64,000 bases of DNA, from assembly GCF_022045235.1 (NCBI RefSeq), contig NW_027266271.1, forward strand, positions 9,176,001-9,240,000, given 5' to 3'. Position 1 is the stretch's first letter, and every line of letters begins with the position of its first letter. Below the pieces are notes generated by a model that searched no databases, was not told the origin of the DNA, and was given only the letters and a program-made list of their open reading frames with translations. Below are positions 109-60,994 of the stretch, in pieces. The position numbers were made by a program, and so were the translations under genes. The stretch comes from Haliotis cracherodii (taxonomy: Eukaryota).

Positions 109-380
109 CTATGACTCCAACTTATTGTCACCATCACTGTCCTCTCCAATCTCCTCTCCATGCAGAGCCTCTTGACTTCTGTGAGTGTGGCGAGACAGTC
201 GGGATGCAAGTCCCGAGGCTGGAGTCAGTGTGGTGCTACCCTGCAAGTCCTCCATTTGACCCTGCTCTGGGGGCTCCACAGAGTGCTGGGACGGTTCATG
301 TTTTTCACACTTCACCAGTGTCTGCAAGCTATCTGCACGCTGCACTGGCTCTGCATCTATGGACAAATATAGACGAAAAT
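109..380 (-). CDS. Gene A last coding exon (unknown acidic low-complexity protein, C-terminus ...DGDNKLES*)
   Basis: Acceptor ttttcAG|AT at 382-381 (minus). Open frame (ORF 109..366) to TAG at 109. The phase-1 start matches the phase-1 end of exon 5716-5665. Confidence 0.7.
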
Positions 381-578
381 CTGAAAACTATACTTTTTTA
401 ATGTACACTAAACTAGAGTTATTATGAACTAAAGGGACCCCAAATTTTATTTTGTTATAACCGTAGTTCTTTATAAGCACATGTACAGCAAATATACGCC
501 AAATGACCAAGACCAAAAAACAAGTTTGATATATGTCAGTTTGTTATAAGCATAGTTTATTGTACTCACCAAGAGATT

Positions 579-860
579 GAGTGAGTGAGTGAGTTGGGTT
601 TTACGCCGCTTTTAACAGTATTCCTGTTATATCACGGTGTGTCAGCTTAATGTGGGAGGAAAGCCCAAAGTGATGCAGGTCTCAGACATTTACCACTTCA
701 GTGAAACCCACGAGCACGGGTATGGTGCTGACAAACCTAAAAACATAATTGGGGCGAACCTGGATTCGAACCCACAATCATAGGTTTCTGGCGTGTCCAC
801 GGGACGTAAATCTGCACAGCAAATCGCAGCACCTTAGATGACTGGGCCACCTGTGCCCCC
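579..860 (-). mobile_element. SINE family A (tRNA head, V-domain-like body, (ACTC)n tail)
   Basis: Reverse complement of 29447-29723. Confidence 0.9.
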
Positions 861-1723
861 CCCCCCCCCTCCCCCACGAAGATAGAGAGTGATCAAGACT
901 TAACTCTTCAGAACAATATTTGTGTTCTGCTGGAGAAAGCCCCAAATGCTACATCTACATTTACCACTTTGGTGAAACCCAGGAGCAGGGGACTAGAGAA
1001 ACACACCAAGGAACATAATCTGGGGGAATATGGGAATAAAGCCCTCTATCATTAGATCCTGGGACAACTAAGGGACTCAACTCAACACAGTGAAATGCAG
1101 GCAAAAATGGTAAAACCTTTCCCCAATAGTCGTGATACACCAATGACCTTAACTGTTGAGAATACGGGATCAGATACCTGGATCAACTTATCCTGGTATG
1201 GTCAAGGGACACAACTCTGGACAGCTCTGGAAACTACAGGGACATCTATGCCTGGGTAGACACCATGATTATAATGTGTGCTATCCATCATATCTTTTCA
1301 GGGCAGACATCAGTCCAGTCACACATTGATATTAATAGCCCAACTGGCTAGAGAAAATTGCCTTTGTCTCTAGCTAACCCCAAAACCATTTGGGACAGAG
1401 CATACTCTTGTCGATGATAGAATTTAAAAATGACATCATATGATATATTGAGGTTGTTCCTAATACATGATGCTTACCATCCCAAACATGCTCAAGTGAT
1501 AACTTCTATGTAGCTCATACTCATACAGTTAAATTTCTGTTATTTTCTAAAAGACAAATTATAGTAATCTAAGACTGCTGCAATTTCCTACTTGTTCCAC
1601 TTGTTTCCAAATCCTATAACACAGCACCAAAACACCCCCCAACTGTCACAACTGCACACACTCCGCACCAAACAACTGCCTGTTCCTACTTCTAGTACTT
1701 CGCAAAGCAAGCTGTCAGAAGCT

Positions 1724-1850
1724 GTGAGTGAGTATATGCCGCTTTTAGCAATATTCCAGTAATATCCCGAGCGGAGACACCAGAAATGGGCTTCACACAT
1801 TATACCCATGTCGGGAATTGAACCCGGGTCTTTGACGTGAAGAGCGCCTG
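1724..1850 (-). mobile_element. SINE family B (short tRNA-derived), 5'-truncated
   Basis: gcttttagcaatattccag...gggcttcacacatt...gaacccgggtctt shared with the other copies. Confidence 0.85.
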
Positions 1851-3975
1851 CTTCGCGGACAAGGTAGCCATGGCAGCCAATGCGTTCTGACGACATGACA
1901 CCTCTGGTAAATCTTCAGCCAATGATGGCTACTCTTAAGCAATTGTTGAGTTTGTTGAAAAGACTACTAATGAATTAAAGATTATGAGGCAGGATCAGGT
2001 CTGACTTTTCGATGTTTATCAACCAGCCCAGCTGCTCCAGGAGATGCTGAGAGAACAATATAGGTTGGAGAAGTAGCCATTGAAGTACACTGGCGAGGAG
2101 GATATCTTCGATGAACAAGTGGAACCTTACCCCTCTTTGATGCAGAAACAACAGAATATGGCTGGTGGAGAGAGGAAAACAACTATCAGATATTCCCAGA
2201 CACTCCAGATAGCCTTCGTTGAAGACCTTGAGGTTATGAGAGTGGAATTTTCTTATGGCACCAGGAGTATGTTGGAACTTAAACCCAGAGTCAGATGATT
2301 GGCTGGAGTTTCTTCCACTGCGTTCATTTCTAGTAGAAGAGATACATTTTCCCAGATGAGGTTGGCATGGTCTTCAGAAAAAATATCTTCTCTCTGTACT
2401 TAACAGGGGAGCTGCAACCAGCATAAGTTTGAACTTGTAGGGTTTTCAACCACCAACGGGTCTGATATTAACTGCTGCACATTTCTCATATACGGTTGAA
2501 GTCTACCCCTACCAGTCTGGATGTCACACGGGTAATGGGGGGAGGAAGGTCCCAAGTTCTGACTACAAGGAGGCAGTCACTTTTGGAGAACTGAAAAAAA
2601 GTCCAGAGGTTTCCCTTTCTGAAATTCCTTTGTAAGCAGAAACCCTGACCTGATAGGATTGTTTGTTTGTTTGTTGTTTAACGCTGCACTCAGCAATATT
2701 AGGAAGGCTGAAAGGAACCTTTGCGCAAACAGGACTTTTTCCTTAACGTCTGCCTCAAACACATGTTCTTCATTATGAAGGTCCTGTAGCGAGCCTAAGC
2801 AAGATCTACCCTTTGAACTGACTGCAACGCTGTCACCGTGGCCTCAGTTTGCGCTCCTGCCAGTAAATCTCGGTAAAGGGGTAGATCCAACCGTCGATAA
2901 GTGTAGAAGAAGACCATGGCTGTTGCAGCAACTATGCCTTGACAAGCCGGTCCCAAGATGACTCACAGAGGACCCCCTGCCATCTAATGGCCCCAATCCA
3001 TGCATATCAATACTGCATAATGACGTAAAGTAGTTCCTAAATGTGTGCGCAATGGAGCGGACAAGAGCTTCCCTCTCAGTATGTGGAGGTCCTAGAAAAG
3101 CCATAACAGCAGTAGTAGCAGAAGTTGTCAACGATCCTGTGATAGACAATGAAACAATAGCCAATCTAAAAGTTGTGGAACTTACTGCAGTAACTGGGTC
3201 ACCATCCGACAGGGACAGACCTCTCTCTGGCGACCTACGACCCTCTCTACAAACTAACTAAAGCAGCAACTACCCTGATCACCCTTTCTGTAATCGTACA
3301 TGGAAGACCTCCTGTCACCCACCAATCTGTCACAGTCCCCGCAAGTGGTAGCTCTCGATGGCCGATGTTCAGCAACCTACTAGAACAACATCTGTTACTA
3401 TCAAACAGGTGGCCACTAGCTATTACAGTAGACAATCGACCTTGTTGAGCCTTATTAGATGATCTGCAATGATGGTGGTGATCTGTTAAACGAACCCTGG
3501 CAAGATAAGCAACCCTCAGACAACAAGACATATGGTAATTCAGGAGACACACCAGGGTGGAACCGTTCCAAATGCTGCAAATGATGCCCTGGCTGCTCTT
3601 TGGACTGCAACCTCTTATCAACGGACAACATCCCAGGCTCCCTTGTCTGCAACCGCTCAGCGGGTATCAGGTGAAGTCCGGGTGACAACATCTCTTGATG
3701 TCTGCATGTTAGCGTACTCGCCAAGGGCTGGTAAATCTGCATACAGAGATGAAACCACTTGCTGATGCTGTCTTCGATTGCTATGCCAAATTTATTTCCA
3801 CCAAAGCTGTGCCAAAAGCTGAACTGCCCCGGCACCCCTGCCATAGAAGCAGGGACAGTCTCTCTTGAAGTAGCCAAAATAGTAGATGTGGACATCAAAC
3901 ATTGGTAGCCTCCGGACAGACAACACATGAGAAAGTCTCCAAGTATGTCAGTATCCACTTCAGAGCCAGACACCA

Positions 3976-4084
3976 GGGGCCCGTTTCACAAAGCGATCGT
4001 AGCGCTACGACAACTGTAACTCCTATACTTAAAACATAGACTTCGACCGTCTTAGCGCTACCATCTCTTTGTGAAACGGGTCCC
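3976..4084. mobile_element. 109-bp MITE, PIF/Harbinger-like
   Basis: TIR gggcccgtttcacaaag / ctttgtgaaacgggtccc, plus an internal inverted tagcgcta. Confidence 0.75.
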
Positions 4085-5293
4085 TGAAGGATCACTACAG
4101 TGTCTGCCATTGTGTATCACTGGAGCACACAGACAAAAACATTACACCAAAGAGTCAAGACTTGCATAAATATTAAAAGCCAGATCAGTAAACACACAAA
4201 GAGAAACAAATCCAAAAACAACAATGCAATAACAAAAGCCCATTTCAAAGGCCGGTGAAAGTTGTACAAAGACACAAATACCTGAACAAGCTGCTGATAA
4301 AAAGAGAAAGCACACAAAATACACACCTCAAACACAACTAACTACCAAATGTAAGTGTATGTATACCTCCAAACGAATATTACAGCAAAATAGTAAAGCT
4401 GAAATGAAAATATGTCACACAAAAAGGATTCTGAAGAGCAAACGAAAACCTTGACTGCCCAGTCAGAGCGACAAGTAGCAGGATGAAGCTGCATCGCAGG
4501 AGGGGAGCATGTGCAGCGGTGCCTACCAGTGGGGGACTGTTTTCGGTGCTGTGGTATAGGATTCGGGAACAAGTTGGAAATTGCTGCAGTCTTAACAGGA
4601 CAAGAAATAATAGGATACATTTAAAGTAATTTCAAGATAATGTACTTAAAACATTTGCTTTTAAAATAGATGACACTTCCATGAGTTTGGTCACTTTGGT
4701 GTATACATAAAGGTTTAATTGTAGCAAGAACAAAACATGTTAAGAGTTATGAGAATAAAATCTACAAGTTAATCCTCATGATTAACACAGATACAGCCCT
4801 ATCAAATATGAACTTTGCAGATTATTACAGAGCGAGACAGGAGTAAATTGGAGGTAAGGGAAGTAACTCTGCCAGGAATGCACCAACCAGGGTTTATCTG
4901 CATTCCAAACCAACAAGTGCCCTTGGCAGGCAAGCTAAGGAAAAGACAGTGATTGCTATATTTTTTTATAAAGTCATAAATTTTCATAAATTAGGAGATA
5001 CTTTATCATTGTATTCAACATGTTCACAGCCACAGCTATAGCCATTACAACATGATTTGGGAAATTCCAAATTTGTAATAACAGTGTCTGCAGACTCTTG
5101 GCAAATAGTGGCCTCTGAGCAGGTCTAGACAAACCCTGTAAACATGTTTTGACCATCTGTATTTTTTAAGGAGATAGAACCCAATTGATAAGCCAGGTTA
5201 GTGGGTACTGAACTAGTTCAGAATAAACACTGACAACATTACAAAGAATATTGACATTCACACCAGTTGCAATATGTTTGGGACGGTGAAATG

Positions 5294-5556
5294 AGTGAGT
5301 GAGTTGGGTTTAACACTACTTTTAACAGTATTCCAGTTATATCACGGCGTGTCAGCTTCATGTGGGTGGAAAGCCTGGTGATGCAGGTCTCAGACGTTTA
5401 CCACTTCGATGAAACCCACGAGCAAGGGTATGGTGCTGACAAACCTAGAGATTTGAACCCAAGATCATGGGTTTCTGGCGTGTCCAAGGGACGCAACTCT
5501 CCACAGCGATTCGCGGCGCCTTAGATGACTGTGCCAGCCATGCCCCCTCCCCCCCT
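5294..5556 (-). mobile_element. SINE family A
   Basis: Homologous to 29447-29723. TSD cggtgaaatg at 5284-5293 and 5557-5566. Confidence 0.9.
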
Positions 5557-5664
5557 CGGTGAAATGGAAAACTGAAAGAATTTCATAAACCTTAGAAATG
5601 ATAAACACACCAGACAAATCACAAATTTCAATACATAACAGTTTTAAGTATCGTCTCAAGTTAC

Positions 5665-5716
5665 CTGTGCCTGTATGATAGCCTGATGTCGAAGCAGCTT
5701 GTCTCGGAACTGTTTC
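5665..5716 (-). CDS. Gene A 52-bp coding exon (ETVPRQAASTSGYHTGT)
   Basis: ttgtatttcAG acceptor and CAG|GTAAC donor, phase 0 to 1. The SGYxTGT motif is shared with the equivalent exon of gene B. Confidence 0.75.
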
Positions 5717-6560
5717 CTGAAATACAATAATATAATAGTGTCATCCTAAGAGATTAAGCAGAATGTGGACAATCGCAACTATAAAAAAATCTGTTCTGAT
5801 TAAGATTGACTACATACTGTATTAATGTGTAAGCCATTTCACATACAGTAATTTCTCAAACTTGAGATTGACAAAAGAGACATGAATGTACGAAGTGTTC
5901 ATAACAAGTAAAACATCTGAAACATGTTTAACAATGTTTTTTCAACCAATCAGACTGTGTCAAAGTGATACACTCCCATTTATTCTACAATGTGGTCACA
6001 TATTTGTGCTCTGTGGATTCATGATGACACCTTCCATTGTTTAAGGTACGCCAATCAATGAAGCATGTTGATAGGTAAAACAATAGAAGATTATAGGGAC
6101 CGTCTCCCAGGCAAGTGAGCGAAGTCAACGATGGTGAACTTAGTTCACTCGAGAATTAAGTACAACTGCACTAAACAAGTCACTAGATTCTGTTCCCACA
6201 CATCCTAATGATGACGCCAAGATCTTTGGTAACAATTTCTTGTCCAAAATGAAACAAATGGTGAGAGACAATGCCACACTGGTGTCAAAGATTTTCAGAG
6301 ATGTTAGAGGTAAGTAAATTCCCCTTGTTTAATTTTTGAGATTTAAAGAAGAAAATGTGTCCGAGATGTTTTTATTTTCTTTATCATTGTCATCTCATAG
6401 TTTCTTCATCAAGCCAAAAAAGAAAAATAGAAGAAGGTGTAGCAGATATTTTGATTTCACTCATCCATACAATATACTAATGATTCTCTGTCAACTATTT
6501 CAGAACTTCGTGCTACAAAAGGAGATGAGGAAAAAGATAGGCGACTTGACTTGCGATGCA

Positions 6561-6675
6561 GGCCGCACAGCGCAGACCACACATCTCAGACCGCACAGCG
6601 CAGACCACACAGCGCAGACCGCACAGCACAGACTGCACAGCGCAGACCGCGCAGCGCAGACCACATAGCGCAGAC
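6561..6675. repeat. 14-bp minisatellite (gcacagcgcagacc)n, about 8 copies
   Basis: Direct tandem units. Confidence 0.9.
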
Positions 6676-7278
6676 TCCTGAGTGGCCTAACAACCATCCA
6701 GCAATATCATGACACTGTCAAATAACATTACCATGTAAATGTAATTGTACTTCTTTAGAAAACTAACTGTGAATTTATTGTGTCGTATTCTATATATCAT
6801 TTCATAAATTGTATTGGTTATTTTCCGCGAATGCCATTATGTAAATTGTGGATCTTGACTGATGAGTGTTCAACACAAGGAACTAGTTCAATTCTTATTT
6901 GAAATATCGCTTCGGGACCATTGCTTATGCATCCTTGACACGATCCCCATGCTTGTAACAACAGTGGCATGGTGAAGCTGAGGGCACAGACTAAACCATT
7001 CAGCTATAGACACAAACAGTGTTCTGTCAAATGATCCATTCTCGCCTCAGACTTGATTGTAGCGATTTAAACTTCCATCAACTTGAAAGCCACATCTCAA
7101 AACGCATCATGCTCTAGTGTCTATCCAATAATCCGTTTGAAGATATACTGCATTATTTTTTCACATGACCGAAATACAATATTTTAAGAAACAATTTGAT
7201 TTTTATTTGAAAGGTTACAGTTTAAATTCAGCGATTTATGGGAATGGGAATGGAAATGAAAACAAATTTCAATATATT

Positions 7279-7632
7279 GAACTGCGATCAAAGTGTGGTC
7301 GACGTATAGTTTAGTTACAGAGCAATTTGCCGTAGACAAGGTAACTAAAAATAGCATGGTTAATGCTCTTCGACCCACAACTAATTATCGATTCGACAGG
7401 ACAACTGCACACATCAGTTGAATTGCGATGGAAGTGTGGTCGCGCATAATTTAGTTACAAAACAACTCGCCGTAGACAAGGTAACTAAAAATAGCATGGT
7501 TAATGCTCTTCGACACACAACTAATTATCGATGTGACAGGACAACTGCACACGTCAGTTCAACTGTGATCGAAGTGTGGTCGGCACATAATTTAGATACA
7601 GAGCAACTCGCAGTATACAAGGTAACTAAAAA
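7279..7632. repeat. About 140-bp tandem repeat, about 2.5 copies
   Basis: aa(c/t)tg(c/t)gat..aagtgtggtcg recurs at 7280, 7421 and 7561. Confidence 0.9.
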
Positions 7633-7817
7633 ATATGAGCAGTACTATAAAGTATGGGAAGACGATGCATACACTGAATAACCATAATAAAAAAGCCAAA
7701 GTACTGCACACAACAAAAAACCATAAGAATGCGTACATTCACCAACAGTTTTTATTGTAACCTGTTATCTGGCACGAAGTGTGGAGCAAAAAGTCCAAAG
7801 TGAATAAAGCACAAATT

Positions 7818-8960
7818 CACTGTCTTTTCTGGGAGATCTGTTGTGCCACCACCAGTGGGCCAAACTGTTTGAGTCCTTCAACATCTTCTGTTGAGATATC
7901 TCTGAGATAATGGGAATCAAACACTGAAGTAGATCTCCAAAAGCAGCCCACCATATAATAGCTTGCAGCGAACAATTACTGTGGAGTGCTAATGTTGAAG
8001 CTATGGCTCGAACTTCATGCGGATGAGAGGAGGTGGGAGGTGCGAGTCCTTGCGCTTCGTAAGCTCTGAGAATGACCGCTCAGAGAGAGTATTACGTGTA
8101 ATCTCTTTCTTTGCATTGGTTGAGAGCGGTATGAACAGCCATCGAAAATGTTGTCATCGCTGTTCAGATCGCTGCAGGTAAATACGAAGCGCACGAACTG
8201 GGTACAGGGTGAGATCAGCGTGATCATGAGGGCCCATAATGGCAGACAAGCAAGGAATGTGGAACATTCTCAATTCTTGGCCAGGAAGTTGATTTTTCAC
8301 TAAAAAGTCCCATCTGAGACCAAGGTGGATGTTGGCATTGTTACGCTGATCGAACGTAATCCGACCGACGTCAATGGCCTGTATATCCGTTACTCTCTCT
8401 GCCGTAGCCCGCGAGAGAAGGAAAGCGGTTTTCTGAGACCAAAAGTCGAACGCGACCTGATCTAGAGGCTCGTAAGTCTGACTAGACAGGTTGTGCATAA
8501 CGACATCGAGGTCCCAGGCCGGCGGTCGGAATTTACGTGACTGATCTTCTACCATGAAGGCACCTAGAATCTTCTGCAACTCCGGTACTTTAGTGAAGCC
8601 AAAGCTGCCAGATAAGTCGAGATCGCCGACCCTTTCAGATGCCGAGATGACCGGAGTGAGTGAGTGAGTGAGTGAGTGAGTGAGTGAGTATGGTTTACAA
8701 CGCTTTTAGCAATATTCCAGCAATATCACGTCAGAGGACACCATGGGCTTCACACATTGTACCCATGTTGGGAATCGAACTCGGGTCTTCGGCGTTAGAT
8801 GACCGGAGATAGACTAGGAACTCCGCCCCCCGTGGTGGGGTTGCTACCGCCGGGTTGAAGCCACAAGACCGGTAAAAATGAGAAAGCCGTCCACTTGTCA
8901 TCATACAGCTAACGAGTCGTAACTCAATGTGCAGACGAGACAAGCGCTGCCGCTTTAGCC
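7818..8960 (-). pseudogene. DIRS-b tyrosine recombinase (disrupted by a SINE and frameshifts)
   Basis: PAWDL, KTAFLL..ATAERV.DI, YPVRAL, HEVR and HY catalytic motifs. Confidence 0.88.
8657..8796 (-). mobile_element. SINE family B inserted in the DIRS-b YR
   Basis: (GAGT)n tail. 12-bp TSD agatgaccggag at 8645-8656 and 8797-8808. Confidence 0.92.
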
Positions 8961-8976
8961 GAATACCCTTTCTTCA

Positions 8977-9420
8977 TTAACGAGGTCTTAAGCAAACCCA
9001 GACGTGAAGCTGGAAGTTCTTTATCCCCGGATGCAAGTCGTCGGTGTGAGGATGAAGAAGGAGGTCATCTCGATTTGGCAACAGGAACGGTGGCTGATCG
9101 ATGATCTGAAGAAGTTCCGGGAACCACGTTCTGGTCGGCCAATAAGGCACGACCAAAAGCAGGCGTAGGTTGGCTGTTTGAACTGTCTCCAGTATCGATG
9201 GCATAAGCACTGTTGGCGGAAACGCGTAAGCGTCTAGACCCTCCCATGATATCGCTAGTGCGTCGTGGTTCCATGCCCGTGGGTCTGGAACCGGCGACAC
9301 AAATCGAGGGAGGCGGTTGTTGTACCGGGTTGCGAAGAGATCTACTTGGGGCAACCAGAGTCGATCTGTAAGCAGTTGAAAGACTGTCGAATGGATCATC
9401 CACTCCGTGGGGACAGCCTC
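8977..9420 (-). pseudogene. DIRS-b phage-like (Dam-type) methyltransferase domain
   Basis: EWMIH...VDLFATRYN...DALAISW...YAFPP...LVVPYWPTRTWFP, the MT domain known downstream of RNase H in DIRS1 elements. Confidence 0.85.
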
Positions 9421-9425
9421 GATGG

Positions 9426-10151
9426 TCACGACACGGCGTCGGCTATCACATTCTTGGCCCCCGGGATGTGACGGATGCGTACACCCATGTCCAAGTCGTC
9501 GACGAGAGCGTAGAACCTGAATGTCCAGTCCAGAAGGGCCGCCGACCGAGTCATACCCTGTTGGTTGATGTAGTGGATGACTGTGGAGTTGTCCGACTGT
9601 ATCATCAGCCGTTTCTGACGGAGTCGAAGTTTCCAGAACTCGACTGCCTGAATCACTGCTTCCATCTCGAGGTAGTTGATATGGAAGACCTTTTCTTCTA
9701 TCGACCACCGCCCGGCCGCTTGGTCATCCCCAAAGTGCATTCCCCAGCCTTCCAATGACGCGTCTACGAATAGGGGTAGTATGAACGGAGGCTCGCTCAT
9801 AAAGACGCCTTCGCAAACGTTCGACGGCTGGAGCCACCACTCCAGATGACAACGTAGCTGCGCAGAAAGTGGAACCAGGAGGTTGGGAAACTCCAGGTGG
9901 GGGTACAGCAATCTCTGCAGCAGACGAAGTTGAAGACGACATCGGCGAGTCAAGTTTTGGGCTGATGTCAACAGACCAAGGACTTCCTGCCACGTGTGCA
10001 CAGACGCCGGGGCATGCAGAAGTCTCGTAACGCTGCTGACAATCTTGTCCCAACAGTCTTGTGGTACCTTGACTAGATTGACTCCTGTCTGGAAGCGTAT
10101 CCCGATGTACTGTAGATCCCGAGTTGGTACTTTTGAAGGTTGACGATCCAC
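9426..10151 (-). pseudogene. DIRS-b RT thumb and RNase H
   Basis: FVDASLEGWG, HINYLEMEAV, QSDNSTVIHYINQQG, HIPGAKNVIADAVS. Confidence 0.9.
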
Positions 10152-10253
10152 CCAAGGTACCGTAGTAGACTCGGGGTGGTCGCTAACTCTCCTTGAACTG
10201 CTTCTGTGAACTGGTGAGCTTGGAGCCTCTAGGTAGAAGGCGACCCTGATTGC

Positions 10254-10757
10254 CTACTGATGGAGCCATTCTACGACCGTCTTCATGATCAATGTGAAAA
10301 TGCACGGGGCCGTAGAAAGTCCAAACGGGACGGCCGCCCACTCATATTGAATACCTTGGTATTTGAATCGGAGGTACTTCTGGAACTCGGAAGCTATTGG
10401 TACATGGAGATAGGCGTCCTGAAGGTCTATCGAGACAAGGAAGTCGTTCGGTAATATCATCCAACGCATATATCTGAGGGATATCATGGTGAATGTGTCG
10501 GGTTGTTGGAGGTGTGTTGCGTTGAACTTTTTGAGATTGAAAATAAGCCGCATCTTTGTGGAGTTTTTCTTGGGTACTAGAAAGATGGGCGAGTAGTACC
10601 CCAGCAATGGTGTCGATGTCCCTAGGCGAAGTACGGCCGTCTTTTCCACCAACGAATCGATGGCCTCCATCATCTGATCCGTTGGTGGAGTGTGGAATGT
10701 CGGGGATAATGGCAGTGGTGGCGTCGATCTCAGGCGTGGGGCGTAGCCTGTTGTCAA
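10254..10757 (-). pseudogene. DIRS-b reverse transcriptase (disrupted)
   Basis: YYSPIFLVPKK, RLIFNLKKFN, SIDLQDAYLHVPI, VPFGLSTAP motifs. Confidence 0.9.
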
Positions 10758-10887
10758 AATGTTCTGAATGTAAGGGTCGTTGAGGAAAGCCCACTTGTGG
10801 GCTTAGTGATGAAGTCTAAAGGTAACGACGGTGACAGCGGGGGAAGGGTCCTCACTTCTTTCCCCGCTGGCTCTTTCCCCCCTGGGA

Positions 10888-11127
10888 TTGGACGTTGCCA
10901 TGGTTACGCTGATTGAATGTAATCCGACCAACCTCAATGGCCTGTATTTCCGATACTCTCGCTGCCGTAGCCCGCGAGAGAAGGAAAGCAGTTTTCTGAG
11001 ACCATAAGTAGAACGCGACCTGATCTAGAGGCTCGTAAGTCTGACTAGACAGGTTGCGCAGAACGACCTCGAGGTCCCAGGCCGGCGGTCGGAATTTACG
11101 TGAATGATCTTCAACCATGAAGGCACG
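10888..11127 (-). repeat. Ectopic duplicate of a YR segment (copy of about 8330-8563) inside DIRS-b gag
   Basis: About 230-bp direct match, roughly 93% identical by eye. Confidence 0.9.
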
Positions 11128-11436
11128 TACATTCTCGTTCTGTAACGTCGTCGTGGGGCGTTCGAAACGGTGGCCGTCTGGACAGTTTGTATGAAGCCGA
11201 AATGATGATGTCACACTTGGCTTCCCTGGAGTACTCGTCCAGAACTTCGATGGTACGACCGTCAATCAACTGTTGCGATGACCACTGGGCCCGTTACAGT
11301 GTCCTGCCATGACGATCAGGTAGTTCAGTGCAGTCGATGTAACCATGACGACTTGCCGTAGTAATCTGGCCCGAGGACATCCAAGAGGCTGTCGTCATAA
11401 TCCATCGTCAACATCGATTGTGGAGGCGTAGATGAA

Positions 11437-14364: not shown

Positions 14365-14443
14365 CAGATTCTTCTGTAGGAAATGGAAGACTGTCCTCTC
14401 CTTGCCATGCCTCTTCTTCATTCTGTCTGCTCCCATCACTCAT
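14365..14443 (-). CDS. Gene A first coding exon (MSDGSRQNEEEAWQGEDSLPFPTEES)
   Basis: Exon 14447-14365 with gtttgcAG acceptor and TCTG|GTATGT donor. It ends in phase 1, matching the next exon. ATG at 14443. Confidence 0.7.
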
Positions 14444-17062: not shown

Positions 17063-17064
17063 TC

Positions 17065-44327: not shown

Positions 44328-44417
44328 GATCTGAATTTAATGAGATTGTTCATCAACAATCACCACAAACTAATCAATCTCTAAACATGAATTATTAACT
44401 TATCCTTCAACTCTCAC

Positions 44418-49560: not shown

Positions 49561-50912
49561 TAACATGTTCTCTCTTACACCAAAACAGTGTGTTGAGAAT
49601 TGTATCGTACAGGGCAAAATACTACATCACATTTCACTCATAGTGATTATTTCAGCCTGTCACCAGTAACTTATGTATATGTGAGCAACCATGTGAATAA
49701 GGGATCTTTTGGGTGAAAAATCACATTTTGACTTTTCATTATATTTTCAAACTACAGTATCTTCGGAACACAAAAATACAAGCTTAAATTTTATTACAGA
49801 GATATGTGGCATCAGACATTTGGACTTGGATTTGGACATTTGGACTGGATGTAATAATTACAGTTTTTAGACATAATGTCTGATGAATTGAAAGTAGACA
49901 TGATTGCTGAAAGGTTTCGGAATAATGTTTTTATTACATTACGAATTAACGTGAGAAGGATACGATATTATTGTACAGTCAGCACACATGGCATTCTTCA
50001 CAGAAGTAGGCTGATGTCAAACACAATTGTGTCCTAGCACCTATAAGGTCCCTTTTCTCCTCTTTGGTCACATATGTAGTTTACTCCAACCAAGTCACTT
50101 TTTGAACTGTAGTTAAAGATTATTGCTATCAAAGAGTAACTACTGGTTTTAAGACAACCTTGGGCCACACTGAGATATGTGCATGTTAAACCAGTAGAAG
50201 TAGAGGTCGTAGTAGCAGTAGCCCACACCTGCTAAAAAGCGCTGCACTAATGGGTGTGCATTAGTCGACAGTCGACAGAGACGTGAAAAGCTGCGATAGC
50301 TGTAGAGTACCCCCGGACTGTCGATGCGGCCAGGCCGTCATCTAGTCACGACTGGAGTAACTCAAGCACGGCTACGAGATCTGCAGAAAAGGCATCTGCA
50401 ATCCCTCTATTGACACACCAGCGCGCTTAGCAGGCCCATCTATCCTCGTACTGAAAGTTTGTCTAATCCCCGAAGTCAGTATTGTGCCTGCAACTTGTGC
50501 AGGAATACCGCTCTTCTGAAGGCGATTCCTGACAGTGGCCAAGCCACCCGCTGAATCCTGGGATTCGGGTGGAGGGCCCCGTTCTGGGATAGGAGGTCCA
50601 GTTGTAAAGGTAAGAGAACAGGAGGCTGAGCCAGAAACCTGAGTATTACTGGAAACCAACTCTGCGCCAACCAAAGAGGTGCCAGGAGCACAAGTAGTCG
50701 CACAGGCTGAGTGGCTAGCTGAGACAGGACCTTGGAAATCGGAGGTACTGGGGGGGAATGCCCACAGAACTCTGTCCATCCAGTCTAGCTGGGAGGCAAT
50801 GTGATCGTTCAGAACGCCTCCCCAGCCGGAGAGTGACGCGTCTGTTTCAACTGTGAGAGACGGAACGGGAGTTTCAAGGGGGAACCCGCGGGACAGATTC
50901 CCGACCTCGGTC

Positions 50913-51160
50913 TGTACTGTTATCATACTGCATTATGCCACTAGCGGCTGTGATGGTGTATAACATATTAGAGTAATCTCCCTTGGCGACCTAGCCGTCG
51001 GGACCCCCTGTTTTACCGGATGTACCACCCGTGTATGTATGGCAATAAATACAAGATGGAACACAGAATGTCGTTCTCCATTATTTATTCGTCGGAGGCA
51101 GCAACAGCCTAGGGCTAGTTCAAGTGCTACAAATCATTCCCAAAGCGTGAGAATATTACA
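50913..51160 (+). repeat. 5' LTR (248 bp)
   Basis: TGTA...TACA ends, internal AATAAA, duplicated at 55535. Confidence 0.97.
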
Positions 51161-51173
51161 TGGTGTCAGAGTC

Positions 51174-54100
51174 ATGGATCTTTCCGGAATCCCCACCCCA
51201 TCTATGGACTGGGAAGCATCAAACCTGCCTGATGCGTGGCGGCGTTTTAAACAGCACGTGCAACTGATATTCGACGGACCGTTGGCGGAAAAGTCGGAAG
51301 AATCGAAGTGCTCATACCTCCTACTTTGGGTGGGAGAAAAAGGTAGAGATGTTTACAATACATGGACAGGCATTTCTGATGATGACAAAAAGTTACTTCA
51401 AACTTACTACACTCGCTACGCAGCATACGTCCAGCCAAAGTTGAATCCTGTTTTCGCAAGGTACAAATTCAATAACGAAGTTCAGGGGTCATCTCACTTT
51501 GATCAGTTTGTGACTAGATTAAAGCTGCTAGCTACAGATTGTGCATTTAATACATCTGATGAAATGGTGAGGGACCGCATAGTGTTCGGCACATCATCTA
51601 CTAAACTTCGTGCAAAATTGATAAATGAAGGGGAGAAATTGACACTCGAGAAAGCAATTCAAATGGGACAAAGTTTGGAATACTCTCAGGAACAGTTGAA
51701 AACAATGGCCAACCCTGAGGTACATACAGTTTCAGCCAGTGATAATTCCCATCGACACAAAAAGTATCATTACTCCCGACAGAAATCACAACCTGTAAAA
51801 CCCGACAACACACCAAATAGAAGATCATCAAACAGTGATGACAAAACACATAGTCAGTGTAGAAACTGTGGTAGATCACATTCTAAGCGTGAACCGTGTC
51901 CTGCCAAAGGTAGAAAATGTGACAATTGTGGAAAGTGGAATCATTTCAAGATTGTGTGTCGCTCAGTGAAAGTCAATGAGGTTGTGACAGATGAACACTT
52001 TGATTCAGGGGACTCAGACTTTCTCATAGACTTAATTGATAGCGTGGATACATCTAGTGATGTTGACAGTGTCCACTCCAAAACTGAGGATACTAACCAG
52101 GCTTTTGTTACTGTGAAGGTAGGAATTAAGGGCATACCAGTGGAATTCAAATTAGATACAGGGTCTCAGGTAAATATCATACCAGCTGGATTATTCCCCA
52201 AAATTGGCACTACAACTGTACTCAGTAAACCGCCCAAACAGTTGATGGCGTATGGCGGTACACATCTTCAAACTCACAGTACATGTAGCTTACCTTGTCA
52301 GATTGATGATCGTGAATTCACAGCTGAGTATTACGTTGTAGAGACGGAATCAAACCCTGTACTCAGTCTCAAAACATGCCTTGAATTGGAGCTTATCCAA
52401 CTTACCTGTGCGGTTGATACTTGTGGGTCGAGTGAGAAATCTGGAAAACCTCTTGAGAAGAGCATCATTCTTGCAGAATATGCCGATGTGTTTGAGGGCA
52501 TTGGGCTCTTTCCAGGTGAATGTACGATACACATCGATCCGAGTGCTATCCCTGTAGTTCACCCACCACGAAAAGTTCCAGTCGCACTTCGTGAGAGACT
52601 CAAAGACGAACTTGATCGAATGGAAAAGTCAAACATTATCACAAAGGTTGATGAACCAACTGAATGGGTCAACTCTTTAGTAATCGTTGAAAAGCCACAC
52701 TCAAAGAAACTGCGCATATGCTTGGATCCATTGGACCTGAATCGTGCTATACAGCGTCCACACTACCCAATGAAAACACTTGAAGACATCCTTCCAAGCC
52801 TCTCTAAGGCTCGTTATTTCACTAAACTCGATGCTCGATCTGGATATTGGGCCATCAGACTGGCTGAGGAATCTTCATTTCTTACAACGTTCAACACCCC
52901 GAATGGACGTTACAGATTTCTTAGACTACCCTTTGGGATACGTTCAGCACAAGATGAATTTCAGCGAAGGATTGATGAGTGCTATGAGGGACTAGATGGC
53001 GTTGCAGCCATAGTTGATGACGTTCTGGTGTATGGAAGTACTCCCAAGGAGCATGATCACAACCTGCGGAACATGCTTTCCCGCTCCCGTGACAAAGGTA
53101 TTAAGCTTAACGAAGAGAAGCTTGAAGTTGGTGTCACAGAGATCCAATACTTTGGACACATCTTGAGTGCTGAAGGCCTCAGACCGGACCCAGCTAAGGT
53201 CTCTGCTATATGTTCAATGAATCCACCACATGACCGCTCTGAATTGGAAACAATTCTTGGAATGGTGAATTATTTAGCCAAATTTGCTCCTAATCTGTCC
53301 GAGATCACCAGCCCTCTGCGACAGCTCCTTCCCAAAGACGTTGAGTTTGTGTGGGATCATCCTCAGTCCACAGCGTTTCAGAGAATCAAGGATATCATCA
53401 CACAGACACCTGGGCAAGTTCTTGCCTACTATGACCCAGACAAGGATCTAACACTCCAAGTTGATGCATCCAAGTATGGTCTTGGTGCCGCTCTCTTACA
53501 GGATGGGAAGCCTGTCACTTATGCATCTAAGTCACTGACCACCACGGAGGTCAATTATGCACAGATCGAAAAGGAAATGTTTGCTATCCTGTTCGGCTGT
53601 AAGCGTTTCCACCAGTATGTTTATGGTCGGCATGTGAAAGTCGAGTCCGATCATAAACCTCTCATCTCTATCATGAAGAAGCCTCTTGCTGTCGCCCCTG
53701 CTCGGTTACAGCGTATGATGTTGCAGCTACAAAAGTATGACCTCACAGTTGAACACAGACCTGGGAAGGAAATAGTAGTAGCTGATACACTTTCACGCAA
53801 GTCAGTGCCTGATACCTACCCGCACCTTTCAGAAGGTATGGACGCGCATGTCCATATGATAGTATCAAATGTTCCTGTCAGTGATAAGAGGACGGAGGAT
53901 ATTAGACGAGCCACAGAAGCTGACCCTCAGTTCTCCTTGCTCCAACAAACTATCATAGATGGTTGGCCTGAACATAGGAAGCTATGCCCAGGGACAATAC
54001 TTGAATTCTGGAACTTCAGGGACCAACTTGCCTTCATGGATGGCATCATATTCAAGGGCCAGAAAATTGTAATACCCAAGTCACTGAGGACAAGTATGCT

Positions 54101-55247
54101 TGACAAAATTCACACTGGTCACATGGGAGTTGAAAAGTGTCTCCGACGTGCTCGTGACATTTTGTTTTGGCCCAAAATGTCGAATGATATCACAAGTCTT
54201 GTACTCAACTGTTCTGTGTGCCTAGAGAGAAGAAACTCTAACCCCAAGGAACCCCTCATATCACATGACATTCCCAGTCGTCCTTGGCAGACCGTGGCCA
54301 CAGACCTCTTCTTATGGGACACCCATGATTTTGTGGTCGTTGTCGACTATTATAGCAGGTACTTTGAAGTTTGCAAATTACCCAGCACCAAAAGTACCAC
54401 TGTTATCAATGCTCTCAAAGATGTATTTGCGAGACATGGGATACCGAATGAGGTGATATCTGACAATGGCCCCCAGTACTCCTCACAAGACTTTGCTCAG
54501 TTTGCAGAAAAATGGGACTTTGTGCATGAGACATCGAGCCCTCATTACCCACAGTCAAATGGTCTTGCCGAGAAAACTGTCCAAACAATCAAGCACATTT
54601 TTTCCAAGGCAAAGACAGATGGCAGAGATCCACACATTGGTATTCTAGAGTACCGTACTACCCCAATGGAGGCAAATCTATCACCCTCTCAGCTACTCAT
54701 GGGTCGACGATTACGATCCACATTACCTTGTACCCAACATCAACTTTTGCCTGGATCTGTTGATCATCCTCAGTACCAGAAAGTACTACAAGCAAGTCGG
54801 AGGAAACAAAAGCACTACTACGATACTGCTGCCAAGCCCCTGTTGCCCCTTAAAACAGGAGAAGCAATTCGTATACGACAACACAGTAACTTGTGGACAC
54901 CTGCAGTAGTCACAAAGCAGCACAATTCCAGGTCTTACACTGTTCGCACTGGCGATGGAGCGGAATATCGTCGCAACCGACGTCACCTACTAAAGACACG
55001 TGAAAAGCATGACATACCTGAAATGAACATTGATGTCACAAGTAGTGAGTTACCACGTGTTCCACAGACTGACAGAGCCGTTACCTGTACTCGTGATACA
55101 GCTGAGGTCAAACCCTCTGATGACCCTGTAACATCACAAATCCCATCACGAACACACAGTCCCCAGAAAGTTATTGACAATGCCAACAATCATTATATCA
55201 CTCGTTCGGGTCGGGTTGTCAAACCCAAGGTTATTGCCTCAGTGTAG
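51174..55247 (+). CDS. Gypsy single gag-pol polyprotein (gag CCHC, protease, RT, RNase H, integrase)
   Basis: Uninterrupted ORF. Cx2Cx3Hx5C/Cx2Cx4Hx4C knuckles, FKLDTGS protease, IVDD RT, VDASKYG RNase H, HHCC + DDE integrase (ATDLF, ISDNGPQY, SNGLAEKTV), terminal TRSGR. The frame is also open from ATG 51039 inside the LTR. Confidence 0.95.
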   Translation: MDLSGIPTPSMDWEASNLPDAWRRFKQHVQLIFDGPLAEKSEESKCSYLLLWVGEKGRDVYNTWTGISDDDKKLLQTYYTRYAAYVQPKLNPVFARYKFNNEVQGSSHFDQFVTRLKLLATDCAFNTSDEMVRDRIVFGTSSTKLRAKLINEGEKLTLEKAIQMGQSLEYSQEQLKTMANPEVHTVSASDNSHRHKKYHYSRQKSQPVKPDNTPNRRSSNSDDKTHSQCRNCGRSHSKREPCPAKGRKCDNCGKWNHFKIVCRSVKVNEVVTDEHFDSGDSDFLIDLIDSVDTSSDVDSVHSKTEDTNQAFVTVKVGIKGIPVEFKLDTGSQVNIIPAGLFPKIGTTTVLSKPPKQLMAYGGTHLQTHSTCSLPCQIDDREFTAEYYVVETESNPVLSLKTCLELELIQLTCAVDTCGSSEKSGKPLEKSIILAEYADVFEGIGLFPGECTIHIDPSAIPVVHPPRKVPVALRERLKDELDRMEKSNIITKVDEPTEWVNSLVIVEKPHSKKLRICLDPLDLNRAIQRPHYPMKTLEDILPSLSKARYFTKLDARSGYWAIRLAEESSFLTTFNTPNGRYRFLRLPFGIRSAQDEFQRRIDECYEGLDGVAAIVDDVLVYGSTPKEHDHNLRNMLSRSRDKGIKLNEEKLEVGVTEIQYFGHILSAEGLRPDPAKVSAICSMNPPHDRSELETILGMVNYLAKFAPNLSEITSPLRQLLPKDVEFVWDHPQSTAFQRIKDIITQTPGQVLAYYDPDKDLTLQVDASKYGLGAALLQDGKPVTYASKSLTTTEVNYAQIEKEMFAILFGCKRFHQYVYGRHVKVESDHKPLISIMKKPLAVAPARLQRMMLQLQKYDLTVEHRPGKEIVVADTLSRKSVPDTYPHLSEGMDAHVHMIVSNVPVSDKRTEDIRRATEADPQFSLLQQTIIDGWPEHRKLCPGTILEFWNFRDQLAFMDGIIFKGQKIVIPKSLRTSMLDKIHTGHMGVEKCLRRARDILFWPKMSNDITSLVLNCSVCLERRNSNPKEPLISHDIPSRPWQTVATDLFLWDTHDFVVVVDYYSRYFEVCKLPSTKSTTVINALKDVFARHGIPNEVISDNGPQYSSQDFAQFAEKWDFVHETSSPHYPQSNGLAEKTVQTIKHIFSKAKTDGRDPHIGILEYRTTPMEANLSPSQLLMGRRLRSTLPCTQHQLLPGSVDHPQYQKVLQASRRKQKHYYDTAAKPLLPLKTGEAIRIRQHSNLWTPAVVTKQHNSRSYTVRTGDGAEYRRNRRHLLKTREKHDIPEMNIDVTSSELPRVPQTDRAVTCTRDTAEVKPSDDPVTSQIPSRTHSPQKVIDNANNHYITRSGRVVKPKVIASV

Positions 55248-55534
55248 TTTTTACCAGTTTTAGCTCAAGATGTTTGTAAGACTTTACAACAGTCAAACAC
55301 AGTTAGTTTGTATCAGTGTCATTCTGATAGGCTATGCAGGCCACTTCACAATATTAGTTACAATTTACAGTCAAGAATTGACAAGTTATTAGTTGTAATT
55401 CAAGTTTGCAGTGTTGAGCATCACTGAAGTAATTGAATATTATCAATATCATGTGTCTACTCTTTGTAGTCGTTTTCTGTGCTCTGTAGTTCAGTTACTG
55501 TTACTGTGTCCAATTTTTTTTATAAGAAAAGGGA

Positions 55535-55782
55535 TGTACTGTTATCATACTGCATTATGCCACTAGCGGCTGTGATGGTGTATAACATATTAGAGTAATC
55601 TCCCTTGGCGACCTAGCCGTCGGGACCCCCTGTTTTACCGGATGTACCACCCGTGTATGTATGGCAATAAATACAAGATGGAACACAGAATGTCGTTCTC
55701 CATTATTTATTCGTCGGAGGCAGCAACAGCCTAGGGCTAGTTCAAGTGCTACAAATCATTCCCAAAGCGTGAGAATATTACA
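55535..55782 (+). repeat. 3' LTR (248 bp)
   Basis: Identical to the 5' LTR by eye. Confidence 0.97.
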
Positions 55783-58700
55783 CGGTCCACCACTGAAGGT
55801 GTGTAATGAGCCACTACGGAGTCTCGAGCAGAGTCTCAAGATCTTCCGAGTTTGCTCAAACTCGAGGGAGTGCTTGTTGAATGGGTCTCATTCTCAAGTG
55901 CACCCGCCAAACCACATCCACTGTCGCCGCCATGTTGCCCAGTAACTGGTGCCATGTAGGAGCAGTGTGTCTTGCGGACAGAAGGAACTGGGAAGTAACA
56001 CTTTTGACCTTGGCAATGCGATCTTGTGACAGACATACAAGTCTGCTCACTGTGTTGAAATTCGCCTCTAGGAAGACTAGATTCTGAGTAGGGCTCAGAT
56101 CTGACTTCTTGAGATTGACTATCCACCCTCGAGTGATCAGAATGTCTATCACTTCTTGTGTAGCTATCTGACTGAGGGATTGCGATATAGCTCTTAGTAA
56201 CCAGTCGTTGAGGTACGGACTGCAGAACCAACCTTTCGACCTGGCCACTTGGGCAGGAATCAACATCAGCTTGGTGAACACCCTCGGGGCCGTGGAGATC
56301 CCGAATGGTAGAACCCTGAACTGATAACACCCCCTGTCGAAAGAAAACCTCAGGTATTTCTTGAACTCGGGTGTATGGGTACGTGGAGATAGGCGTCTTT
56401 TAGGTCTATTGACGTTAGCCATTCTCCTGTCTCAACAGCTGAGATAACTGAGTACAGACGATACCTCTATAAGTTTGTTCAGCCTTCTCAGATTGAGAAT
56501 AGGCCTGAACCCTCCGGTTTTTGGTGACTAGGAAGTATGTCGAGGAGAAGCCCTCACTTTCCTGTCCCTTGGGAACTGGTTCGATTGCAGCTTTCATAAG
56601 AAGTGCGTCAACCTCAGCACGGAGGAATTCCGCCTTCTCTCGAGTAGCAGGCACTGTAGTGTGCTTTATCCCAGAGAAGGGGCGCGGATGATGTTTCCAC
56701 CGAGGCAAATGGCCATCCCTTAGAGTGGACAGGGTCCAGGAATTGGATGTAACTTCAGGAATAGAGCCAGTCGGCCGCCTACGGGGACATCTGGCTTGAG
56801 GCAGTGGACCCCGGCTGTCGGCAGTTCGAGAACTTGCAACTGTGGGTCCACCCGGGACTCTCCGGGCGCTAATGGGAACCCGATAGGTTCCCGGCCCTGC
56901 GAAAAGGCTGCTGGCCTCAACCAGCTGCCTTGCCCCAGCCCCTGCCTCTCTTGCTCCTCCCGGTGCCATTACTTGAAGGAAGCGGCTGTGTGGACTTCTG
57001 ACCCGGCGCGTCAGCGTAGGAGGAGTCAAGTGTAGAGGTCCGCTTACACGGCTTAGCGCTGGGTACCTCCAACAAGACCTTAGAGTCCTTGATGGTAGCA
57101 ACTGAGTGGCCTCTCGGACCACCTGCTGAGCCCCAGGGAAGAGGGTGGCACCCATCTTATAAGGCAAAGCAAGGAGGTCCTGGCGTGTGGAAGTCGAGTA
57201 TTTAGATACCGACATCCACAGCCTACGCATACCCATAACAGCACACATCATCTGCAAGGCACAGCTATGAATGGCGTCCCGCACAAGATGACTGAACTTC
57301 CGTTAGTTGCGCGGCCCACTCCGAAGAGTCAGCCGGCCCCTCCCCCGCTAACTCCCTCTGTACAGCCGACAGATAAGCGGAGTGTACGGACACACGGAGC
57401 TGTTGGCATGCATTACGATATTGCTCCTCAAAGCATATGTAAGCAGCCTTCAACTCTGCACCGCACGCGAGAAAGGGGGGCAACCGCCGGCCCTGCTTGA
57501 CCTTATTCAAGTTGGGGGTCAAACGCATTCATCGACCACTGGTACCCCAAAGTCACTATCCTCTGCTAACGGGTACCGCTTAATAAGTTCGGGCAGGTTG
57601 AACTTCCTGCAGGCACCCGACAACAGAGGGTTGATAACTTCATGCACCAGGGAGGATAGAACACCTGGGGCGCCTTGCTAGGAGCAAAAGCATCCCCCGG
57701 AAGGCGGCACTCAGTCGGATCCGACTCGGGCATGGGCACAGCCACCTAAGGCAGTACCTGGACAATTCTGTCTCATACGTGCCTCAACGAGGATCGTCCC
57801 CGAGACCAAGTGGCCTGCCTCGGCCGACACCGGGCATAACATCAGGTCTCGAAGCCGCGTCCGGCGCCGACAACGGGGAAGGTTCAGCCCGTACCTCCTG
57901 CCGGAGCTGAGACTTCACCTCCTCCATCATCAACGCCATCTGCGACTTAAGTAATGCAGAAATGTCTGCCAAAGACGGTGCAGGAGAGGGTGCAGTGCTT
58001 ACAACGGGGACCCTCGAGCCTTCTCCCCCCGGCCCTCGGAGAGGGATCGTAGGAGACAGTCTCTGCATTCCTTACTTTTGTACCTTTTTTAGATGAGGGG
58101 GATGGTCTTAACAGATCTGATATCTACCCCTGCCTTTAAGAGACCTTTAAGACAGCGTTTGTTGTGCCGGTCTTGGGGAGGGATGTTTGCTGAGCAACTC
58201 TGTAAAAAAGACCGTAATTTCTGAGTTGGGCGGGAAGGGAATTGATGTGTATCAGTGCGATATAAAGATCGGAAAGACACATGCAAAATTGTGAAACCAG
58301 AAGCACTGTTTTTTTAAGGCGTAATGTAGAATGCGATTTGTAACGCGATACTAATAGCCAATGTCTTAGTATAATTATAACACCAAAGGGGCGTGTAACA
58401 CGCTAAGGTGTAAAACCTGTAAAAAGAGGTAAGTGTAGTTATAAATTAACACACCACCTTGGGTTTATGTAAAGGAAAAAACTGTAGTCCAATGCTGTAT
58501 GATATAACAAAACCCCAAGCTGTTTCTAATGGCCTTGATGTTACATGTATCAGACTGTGGAACTACAATATGGACACCATTATGGCCAATTGAATTCAAA
58601 TGTACCGTGCACGTGGTGTATAATTACAACTCTATAACTTTACAATGCGAGGTATTATGCCTTTGCAATGCAAGAAATGTACCATACATAGAGTTTGGTC

Positions 58701-59884
58701 AGCCATGGTTCTTGTCGAATGATTAGATTTCTCTTATTTGTCATGTAGAAAAACAGCACGTCTGTCTCATACAGATGACAAGGAAAGAGATTTGAGTTAC
58801 CCCCCCTGGCGTGAGACGCCGTGGAGGGTGAGGCCCCGTGAGGGTGGTCGTATATCATACAAAAACAAAGTTTTTGTGTGGTAACATTTTTTATCAAGGA
58901 AAATGGTTACAACTATGTCATGTAGATTTTCTTGAGCAAGGAAAATGCAATAGGTGCCCCAAGGAGGATTTCATCTGAAAGAGAATCCAGTACCTAGATG
59001 TCAATACAGTTTGACAAACTAAATACTGTACTTATTGCATCTTCAAAAAAACAACACACCTTTTTTTCCCCCACTGAATGAATAACGTATTGATCAATGA
59101 CCTATTAACATTAGAAAGTTTGAATTTCCGCTTGACTAGGACTGCACAGTATTACGCTTTACCAATGACACTGTTGCAATATTCTTTCTGTGTTCTGGTG
59201 TATACGGATAAAAATATATACCGATTACAAGTTTAGTTATTATTTGTATCCGATAACCTAAAATCTGCACAGAAACTAGGGGTGAAACAAAACCAGTGGA
59301 GACCTACAGATAAGCAGCGTATTTGCTTAAAATACCCCCAAATATATTAAAAACCCAATTACTTTCAATTAACTTGCATACAGAAAAGCATGCGTTAAAT
59401 GAAAAACTCAAATGTATAAAATCAGCAAGGGTAAATACCCAATGAAGCTTTTTCAGCATGCGTACAAAGGAGCTAATTTCTGAAACACAATTATCAATGA
59501 TTATGAGCTAATATGAAGCCTATATATTTGGAACTGCTATGTATGTCTTTAACATTATTCCATTTTTTTTTTAAATCTTAAAATGTTCACAAATTTTGTG
59601 AGTGTGAGTGAATAATAGATGAGTAAAAAAATATTGGTTACCCAATGAAAAATGTAATTAAAATCGAAACCCTAGAGTAAAAACTCAATTGCTCAAAAAG
59701 TTATCTGGAGCTCTGTCAGTGCATCGTAAGTTTTCATGTGATGATACGATACACATTTTTTTATGTATTGATGCAAGACGTTACACTTGTTGAAGTTAAC
59801 TCACTACTCATTTAATTATCCCTGGCAATTTTGTCAGTCAGATATAGCAAAATGTGTTGTAATTAGTGTTTCAAGTTCACTATC

Positions 59885-60710
59885 AAAAACAGCCGCTATG
59901 AACATGTGTCTACAGACAGTCGCTTACATGTATTTCAAACACTGAGAATGGTATGTGCCAAGACAACCATTTTTGAAGATTGATTAGTAAGCATGGTATA
60001 GAGACAACATAGCTGGGATCACATAAACAAAATTTCAGCTTTATGATCCTGAATATCACAAATGCAGTAAAACTACTAAAAACAGCCGCTATGATTGCGT
60101 GAGTGAGTATGGTTTTACGTCGCTTTTAGCAATATTCCAACAATATCACAGTGGGGTACACCTGAAATGGGCTTCACACATTGTACCCATGTCAGGAATC
60201 GAACCCAGGTCTTTGGCGTGACGTGCGAATGCTTTAACCACTTGGCTACCCGACCGCTCCAGAGCCGCTATGAACATGTGTCTACAGACAGACGCTTACA
60301 TGTATTTCAAACACTGAGAATGGTATGTGCCAAGACAACCATTTTTGAAGATTGATCAGTAGGCATGGTATAGAGACAACATAGCTGGGATCACATAAAC
60401 AAAATTTCAGCTTTATGATCCTGAATATCAAAAATGCAGTAAAACTACCAAAAACAGCCGCTATGAACATGTGTCTACAGACAGTCGCTTACATGTATTT
60501 CTAACACTGAGAATGGTATGTGCCAAGACAACCATTTTTAAAGATGGATCAGTAGGCATGGTATAGAAACAAAATGTCAGCTTTATGATCCTGAATATCA
60601 AAAGTGCAGGCCAAATGAAGTAGCTGGGTCAATAATAAAAATATACTCCAAACTGTACCATGTGTATATGTTATTCTACATACCACATACAGAAAACCGA
60701 AGGGGATAAT
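59885..60710 (+). repeat. 193-bp tandem array (about 2.8 units), probably HINE-like, ending in ccgaaggggata
   Basis: agccgctatg recurs at 59891, 60084/60263 and 60456 (period 193 after removing the SINE). Confidence 0.85.
60095..60262 (-). mobile_element. SINE family B inserted in the 193-bp array
   Basis: 11-bp TSD agccgctatga at 60084-60094 and 60263-60273. Confidence 0.92.
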
Positions 60711-60957
60711 GATACATGGAGAAATGGCCGGGTATTGGGCAAAAAATGAAACTTATAATATTATTGCCATGGCAACCATGTTGTATCAGAATTATCTGAA
60801 TCCATGTAAATCCATGAACTATATAGAATTTGCTCCTCAAGCAAAAGACACATATTTCCTTCTCCACGTCCCTTCCATAAATTGGAATAATGCTTAATGC
60901 AGCATAAAACCACTGTCACGCCTTACTGGTGGGACTATCAGTGCGTACTAAAATTAC

Positions 60958-60994
60958 CTTCATTTTGAAGATGATGATGATGCCCAGATGCCAT
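60958..60994 (-). CDS. Gene B probable first coding exon (MASGHHHHLQNE)
   Basis: Exon 61051-60958 with ttttatttcAG acceptor and GAAG|GTAATT donor. It ends in phase 1 as the next exon requires. The link across the 15.5-kb intron is inferred. Confidence 0.55.

Follow-up and report, generated by a model that had tools for sequence, protein, structure and literature searches.

Two adjacent, unnamed Haliotis genes encode acidic, predicted disordered proteins with conserved short motifs and a degron-like exon

Introduction

BH3-only proteins of the BimEL type are disordered and carry an SSGY-type degron that is followed by a helix. The motifs through which beta-TrCP is engaged vary in their outer positions: the cyclin F degron reads T/SSGxxS, showing that Thr or Ser works at position 1 (PMC6172692), and the Bora degron reads DSGYNT, showing that Thr works at the end (PMC2287288). 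RASSF1C carries an SSGYxS motif whose binding to beta-TrCP does not involve the WD40 degron pocket, and LMP1 and Vpu are beta-TrCP binders that are not degraded and that have no acceptor lysines (PMC10487276). A degron combining both deviations, a Ser/Thr start and a Thr end, was seen in none of the papers examined. FITZAP/sp6 is the closest described abalone system in composition, being abalone-specific, acidic, disordered, and fast-evolving; FITZAP itself is a small secreted protein (~6 kDa) that has a signal peptide and is encoded by two exons (PMC6952181).

Here we describe two genes of Haliotis cracherodii, A and B, that resemble cyclin F and Bora in a conserved six-residue SG-centred motif, with Ser/Thr residues four apart, in a disordered region. 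Unlike those systems, A and B have no sequence homology to either protein, combine the Ser/Thr start with the Thr end, and are candidates for binding only. The genes and their orthologs correspond to uncharacterized Haliotis entries in RefSeq, and the retrieved records contain no name, domain, or statement of paralogy. Among the papers listed by a broad literature search, none deals with either gene, and none of 11 gene and protein identifiers was found in the main text of any paper; supplementary tables may contain these identifiers together with expression data.

Results

The window, a 64-kb stretch of H. cracherodii DNA, encodes two RefSeq "uncharacterized" proteins letter for letter, namely A, XP_071100720 (P0007; 371/371 residues), and B, P0013 (321/321 residues). 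The features of the two genes, in window coordinates, are as follows.

14365-14443, minus strand: gene A coding exon 1 (79 nt), ATG at 14443
13148-13884, minus strand: gene A exon 2 (737 nt), donor corrected to 13148, matching P0007 and contigs
13574-13624, minus strand: gene A core motif FGHSDL...GSYNSG, downstream of the acidic tract
13382-13396, minus strand: gene A first QTxxK site (QTCRK)
13241-13329, minus strand: gene A 15-nt tandem repeat coding for (IEQTD)x6, an expansion limited to two California species
5665-5716, minus strand: gene A exon 3 (52 nt), with degron-like TSGYHT at 5689-5672
109-356, minus strand: gene A last coding exon, acceptor corrected to 356, stop ending at 109, matching RefSeq and a contig piece
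324-310, minus strand: gene A second QTxxK site, in the last coding exon
60958-60994, minus strand: gene B coding exon 1 (37 nt), with an in-frame stop two codons 5' of the ATG
44908-45449, minus strand: gene B exon 2 (542 nt)
45195-45145, minus strand: gene B core motif YGFSDL...GSYNGG, in exon 2
44967-44953, minus strand: gene B QTELK, in exon 2
44418-44508, minus strand: gene B exon 3 (91 nt), acceptor corrected to 44508
44463-44446, minus strand: gene B degron-like SSGYMT, in exon 3
42549-42844, minus strand: gene B last coding exon, with a predicted helix, QTDRK at 42794-42780, and the acidic tail

The first-pass annotation had presented both genes as hidden, although both are already annotated in RefSeq, and had joined their exons by six junctions that are all GT-AG and yield uninterrupted reading frames 371 and 310 aa long. 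Three of the six agree with RefSeq and three are off. In gene A, a donor at 13172 and an acceptor at 380 had been chosen where RefSeq has 13148 and 356, and since these two 24-nt errors cancel, the length of 371 aa was still obtained. In gene B, the acceptor at 44475 (exon 3 of 58 nt) lies 33 nt from the RefSeq position at 44508 and falls inside sequence that is conserved among gene B orthologs; B is therefore 321 rather than 310 aa long. Orthologs of both genes agree with the RefSeq exon forms, and the displaced sites may represent minor alternative use. The proposed intron phases, 1/0/1, are true of both corrected models. An AG acceptor-like site 4 nt upstream of the gene A ATG suggests a possible 5' UTR intron, and a 5-codon upstream open reading frame (61011-60994, minus strand), whose stop overlaps the gene B start codon, could tune translation.

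Transcript support was sought in assembled contigs from 4 of 23 listed runs, whose RNA status is a guess, over window positions 1-20000, which hold gene A only. Among the matches listed, most of the room was taken up by repeats, and no listed row spans a junction. In three of the four runs (three studies), again among the matches listed, a piece stops at 13883 and continues into 86-341 other letters, as expected of splicing. One listed piece spans 13150-13883, beyond the first-pass donor and in keeping with RefSeq, and another spans 1-356, stopping at the RefSeq acceptor. The exon-2 piece from run X1 shows a 3.8% difference from the window, and seven pieces outside exons differ by 2.9-8.9%, some of these seven being perhaps other repeat copies. 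The exon structure of gene B is supported by the RefSeq models. Taken as genes, A and B are genuine, annotated but unnamed paralogs.

The introns and flanks contain several mobile elements. A young, apparently intact Ty3/Gypsy-type LTR retrotransposon occupies 50913-55782 (plus strand) in gene B intron 1, with identical TG...CA LTRs of ~248 nt, a 5-nt target duplication, and one 1427-codon frame with reverse transcriptase, RNase H, and integrase; it was inserted into an older, broken, reverse transcriptase-bearing element (~50372-57500). Gene A intron 2 holds a broken retroelement (8154-12438, minus strand) with matches to reverse transcriptase and RNase H; some of its frames overlap, and 422 nt within it are tandemly duplicated. 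We take its layout to be DIRS-like, and Pfam gave no confirmation of a recombinase in it. One repeat occurs at 63097-64000, where it is contiguous upstream of B, and at 23397-23548 and 27309-28066, the intergenic copy being split by a ~3.8-kb insert with broken frames and no Pfam match. A promoter-like reading of 63100-63400 (kB-like and CCAAT elements) was dropped because this stretch is part of the recurring repeat. Short interspersed repeats are abundant (575-860, 1718-1883, 5292-5546, 8682-8795, 29447-29724, 34061-34262, 36535-36700, 40723-40888, and 60099-60264) and have very high summed contig depth, and two arrays are satellite-like, at 34794-35523 (168 nt, 4.3 copies) and 7277-7632 (140 nt, 2.5 copies).

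Both genes were found in four Haliotis species, H. cracherodii, H. rufescens, H. rubra, and H. asinina. In the latter three, the A and B orthologs lie next to each other in gene or accession numbering (such as LOC124149851/852 and LOC124276996/998; further entries are LOC124291155, LOC124257385, XP_067686788, and XP_067686796), and these neighbouring identifiers suggest that the tandem A-B pair is conserved. In H. rubra, each gene has two annotated loci (P0005/P0006 and P0009/P0011) that are 86-87% identical in alignment and are either haplotype duplicates of the assembly or real extra copies. A third copy of A or B was not found by tblastn within the window.

The paralogy of A and B is well supported as judged from their gene structure and sequence. 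The two genes lie adjacent, 28 kb apart, each with four coding exons in the phases given above, and their motifs are collinear and fall in matching exons, in line with the first-pass view of two related genes. Whole-protein similarity is marginal (BLASTP 17-29 bits; hhalign probability 16%, E 0.0016). For 13 of the 16 A-B pairs, which are not independent, no more than 2 of 300 shuffles scored as high as the real alignment (no more than 7 of 300 when the shuffling was local), while three pairs were not clearly above shuffles (12-32 of 300). In the tree, the four A and the four B sequences fall into separate clades (100/100 each), so the duplication predates the four species.

All eight proteins (314-371 aa) are acidic, with a net charge of -0.10 to -0.14 per residue, contain only 2-6 lysines each, and are placed among disordered proteins by the charge-hydropathy index (negative, 8/8). 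AlphaFold returned mean pLDDT values of 36.0 and 36.8 with one sizeable, low-confidence helix in each protein; the underlying alignments held only 4-6 sequences, and the low confidence is thus no proof of disorder. Charge-hydropathy, AlphaFold, and ESM Atlas results nevertheless agree with the disorder proposed at first pass, as predictions from shallow alignments. A hydropathy scan of the eight proteins, used in place of SignalP, bears out the absence of a signal peptide or transmembrane helix (highest 19-residue hydropathy 1.09; highest N-terminal 11-residue hydropathy 0.42). A and B are best described as proteins for which both disorder and an intracellular location are predicted. No recognised domain emerged, with no Pfam family in either large exon and none above cut-off in six full proteins; the best hits of a PDB sequence search had E values of 0.46 and 0.93, and ESM Atlas gave no feature-level match and structural TM scores of ~0.3 or less. 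Within the reach of the libraries, neither protein is a piece of some larger known protein: the RefSeq models are complete, and the profile search covered proteins of every length.

Motif conservation was scored on four A and four B orthologs, and this comparison upholds the proposal that conservation is concentrated in short motifs. The order common to both paralogs is an acidic tract, [FY]G[HF]SDL (8/8), SY[ND]xG (8/8), a Tyr before GP, QTxxK, the exon-3 motif [ST]SGYxT (8/8), LQT or LQTxxK (7/8), a [TS]P[AV]Sx[LF]-like motif (7/8), and an acidic tail, kept in A and B orthologs. Invariant columns number 32/39 in motifs against 101/332 elsewhere in A, and 29/39 against 130/282 in B, an enrichment that is partly circular because the motifs were picked by eye. 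From the originally proposed chain, [FY]G[HF]SDL, SY[ND]xG, [ST]SGYxT, LQT, and the acidic tail persist, whereas the SLMGV/GVMGC and YLVSEE/YCMTGG pairs are lost in A orthologs; the FQNY/ISNF pair is aligned in one alignment but not in two others. QTxxK occurs twice in seven of the eight proteins and once in the eighth, with one site on either side of the degron-like motif. These sites hold the only conserved lysines, and lysine is kept in 15/16 QTxxK positions; shuffle p-values for QTxxK are circular because the motif was defined from the same data.

The literature-derived pattern [DEST]SGxx[ST] matches each protein once and no more (8/8), always at the exon-3 site, against 8-22% of shuffled proteins expected by chance, and the A and B sites count once because they are homologous. 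The canonical forms DSGxxS and DSGxx[ST] are absent from all eight proteins. Among the motif classes scanned, the non-canonical beta-TrCP degron is the sole class found at one homologous site in 8/8. The conserved lysines lie 18-90 residues from it.

Several other motifs and families were tried and set aside. B resembles BH3-only proteins in a degron-like motif followed by a predicted helix and a short hydrophobic stretch; unlike BimEL, A and B have no conserved BH3 core and no TQT (0/8) and possess an acidic tail, and the core LxxxGDx-hydrophobic occurs non-conserved in 1/8, with no Pfam match above cut-off. RHIM and TRAF patterns gave RHIM 0/8, TRAF2 3/8 at two different sites, and TRAF6 2/8. 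The QTCRKS of A resembles the H3K9 region of histones, and such mimicry is not a family feature because it is found in 3/4 A and 0/4 B proteins. LIR-like patterns turn up throughout, as often as chance would predict, KEN is found in 3/8 (B only), the LC8 TQT, pLxIS, and basic NLS motifs are each found in 0/8, and caspase DxxD is not conserved among the eight. The published regular expression for cohesin CES-binding F/YxF (PMC10238091) matches 0/8, bare YGF being present in the four B proteins only. Identity with FITZAP/sp6 or secreted shell-matrix proteins was rejected, as A and B have no signal peptide and, at full length, exceed the small FITZAP.

Discussion

Our preferred functional reading, which we hold tentatively and at less than even confidence, is that A and B are short-lived regulators acting through motifs, with an abundance that would be controlled by phosphorylation of the exon-3 site and by ubiquitination of the SCF(beta-TrCP) type. 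Within [ST]SGYxT, the Ser and the last Thr would be phosphorylated, the phosphorylated motif would be bound by beta-TrCP, the two QTxxK lysines would serve as ubiquitin acceptors, and ubiquitination would then clear the proteins; the acidic tract and the [FY]G[HF]SDL...SY[ND]xG block may meanwhile bind a partner. Points against this reading are the missing canonical DSG, the 8-22% rate of chance matches per protein, the distance of the lysines from the motif, and the RASSF1C SSGYxS motif, which does not use the degron pocket.

As for origin, we consider it somewhat more probable than the converse that A and B belong to an older family of disordered regulators, of gastropods or of animals, within which they have diverged rapidly, and that they look like orphans through detection failure, a proposal that is compatible with the degron reading. 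The first-pass label of orphan, lineage-specific genes stands insofar as the named matches are all from Haliotis. A profile built from A and B and searched against 1.84 billion representatives of every length had four matches, three from Haliotis and one protein 80% identical to A; a word-based profile search gave seven proteins among 8000 candidates scored, all from Haliotis; large-exon searches returned abalone proteins only; and none of 589 pattern matches in a metagenome scan was confirmed. Neither these searches nor ESM Atlas thus supplied the match outside Haliotis-like sequences that would favour an older family. Divergence is rapid, however: orthologs of cracherodii and rufescens, species that split 4.3 Ma ago, are 90% identical with a minimum pN of 0.046-0.047, those on either side of the Pacific split, dated to 36.4 Ma, are 51-67% identical (dates from bioRxiv 10.1101/2024.09.16.613283), and "orphan" may therefore reflect detection failure. 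Following the similarity-decay logic outlined in PMC7660931, an exponential fit puts the expected scores at 111 Ma at ~30 bits for A and ~53 for B, falling below 4 bits at 250 Ma, against a threshold near 41; the fit is rough, with four points and mixed calibrations. The 111 Ma refers to the Turbo-Haliotis split (interval 73-152; PMC13575190), and because the predicted scores straddle the threshold over this interval, the lack of matches outside Haliotis says little in favour of novelty. The A-B distance of 3.3 substitutions/site scales to ~170 Ma, older than the Turbo-Haliotis split, although this distance is saturated and the dates mix two calibration methods.

The leading functional competitor of the degron reading, which we regard as unlikely but deserving of weight, sees A and B as stable scaffolds or adaptors on which phospho-Tyr motifs dock SH2-type or other partners, SGY being one such docking site rather than a degron. 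Tyr is indeed well conserved (invariant at 6/11 positions in A and 6/7 in B), and three positions are common to both paralogs. The phospho-Tyr docking sites suggested at first pass nevertheless found no backing, as no YxN, ITIM, TRAF2, or TRAF6 pattern is common to both paralogs and the ITIM-like SxYHSI is limited to A. A Ser/Thr phosphodegron thus appears to be the better lead on present analysis.

It is improbable that the proteins act as lysine-poor decoys that bind the ligase, resist degradation, and buffer substrates such as IkB or beta-catenin. Their scarcity of lysine and the precedent of LMP1 and Vpu would fit such a role, but acidic disordered proteins are commonly low in Lys anyway, and the retention of lysine at QTxxK is better explained if these residues are needed as acceptors or for modification. 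Equally doubtful is a more elaborate proposal, a gastropod family of disordered regulators with lysines only in repeated QTxxK flanking a beta-TrCP-type degron, which would form a switch between degraded protein and ligase decoy and make QTxxK a new linear motif.

We attach similarly little likelihood to acidic polyanion chaperones or gamete proteins evolving fast under reproductive selection, as does abalone FITZAP. Acidity, disorder, variable-length Asp tracts, and the pN values noted above suit this idea, whereas the small size, signal peptide, and two exons of FITZAP do not match A and B, and bulk charge needs no ordered motif conservation. That A and B are unrelated and share their motifs by chance is very improbable, since the few pairs near shuffle level and the low hhalign probability are outweighed by the other 13 pairs and by the agreement in exon number, phases, motif order, and adjacency, evidence that in combination largely refutes it.

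Fast-evolving disordered proteins with fixed short motifs are of a common kind, and A and B are not surprising in this respect because such genes are common in animal genomes. What is added here beyond RefSeq is the paralogy, the degron-like exon, and the repeated QTxxK. With the degron reading, beta-TrCP binding becomes one directly testable motif prediction of the pair, and the pair is usable in molluscs as a synteny test of orphan status against detection failure. More broadly, an old duplication carried by four species forms a natural experiment that isolates five to six candidate motifs.
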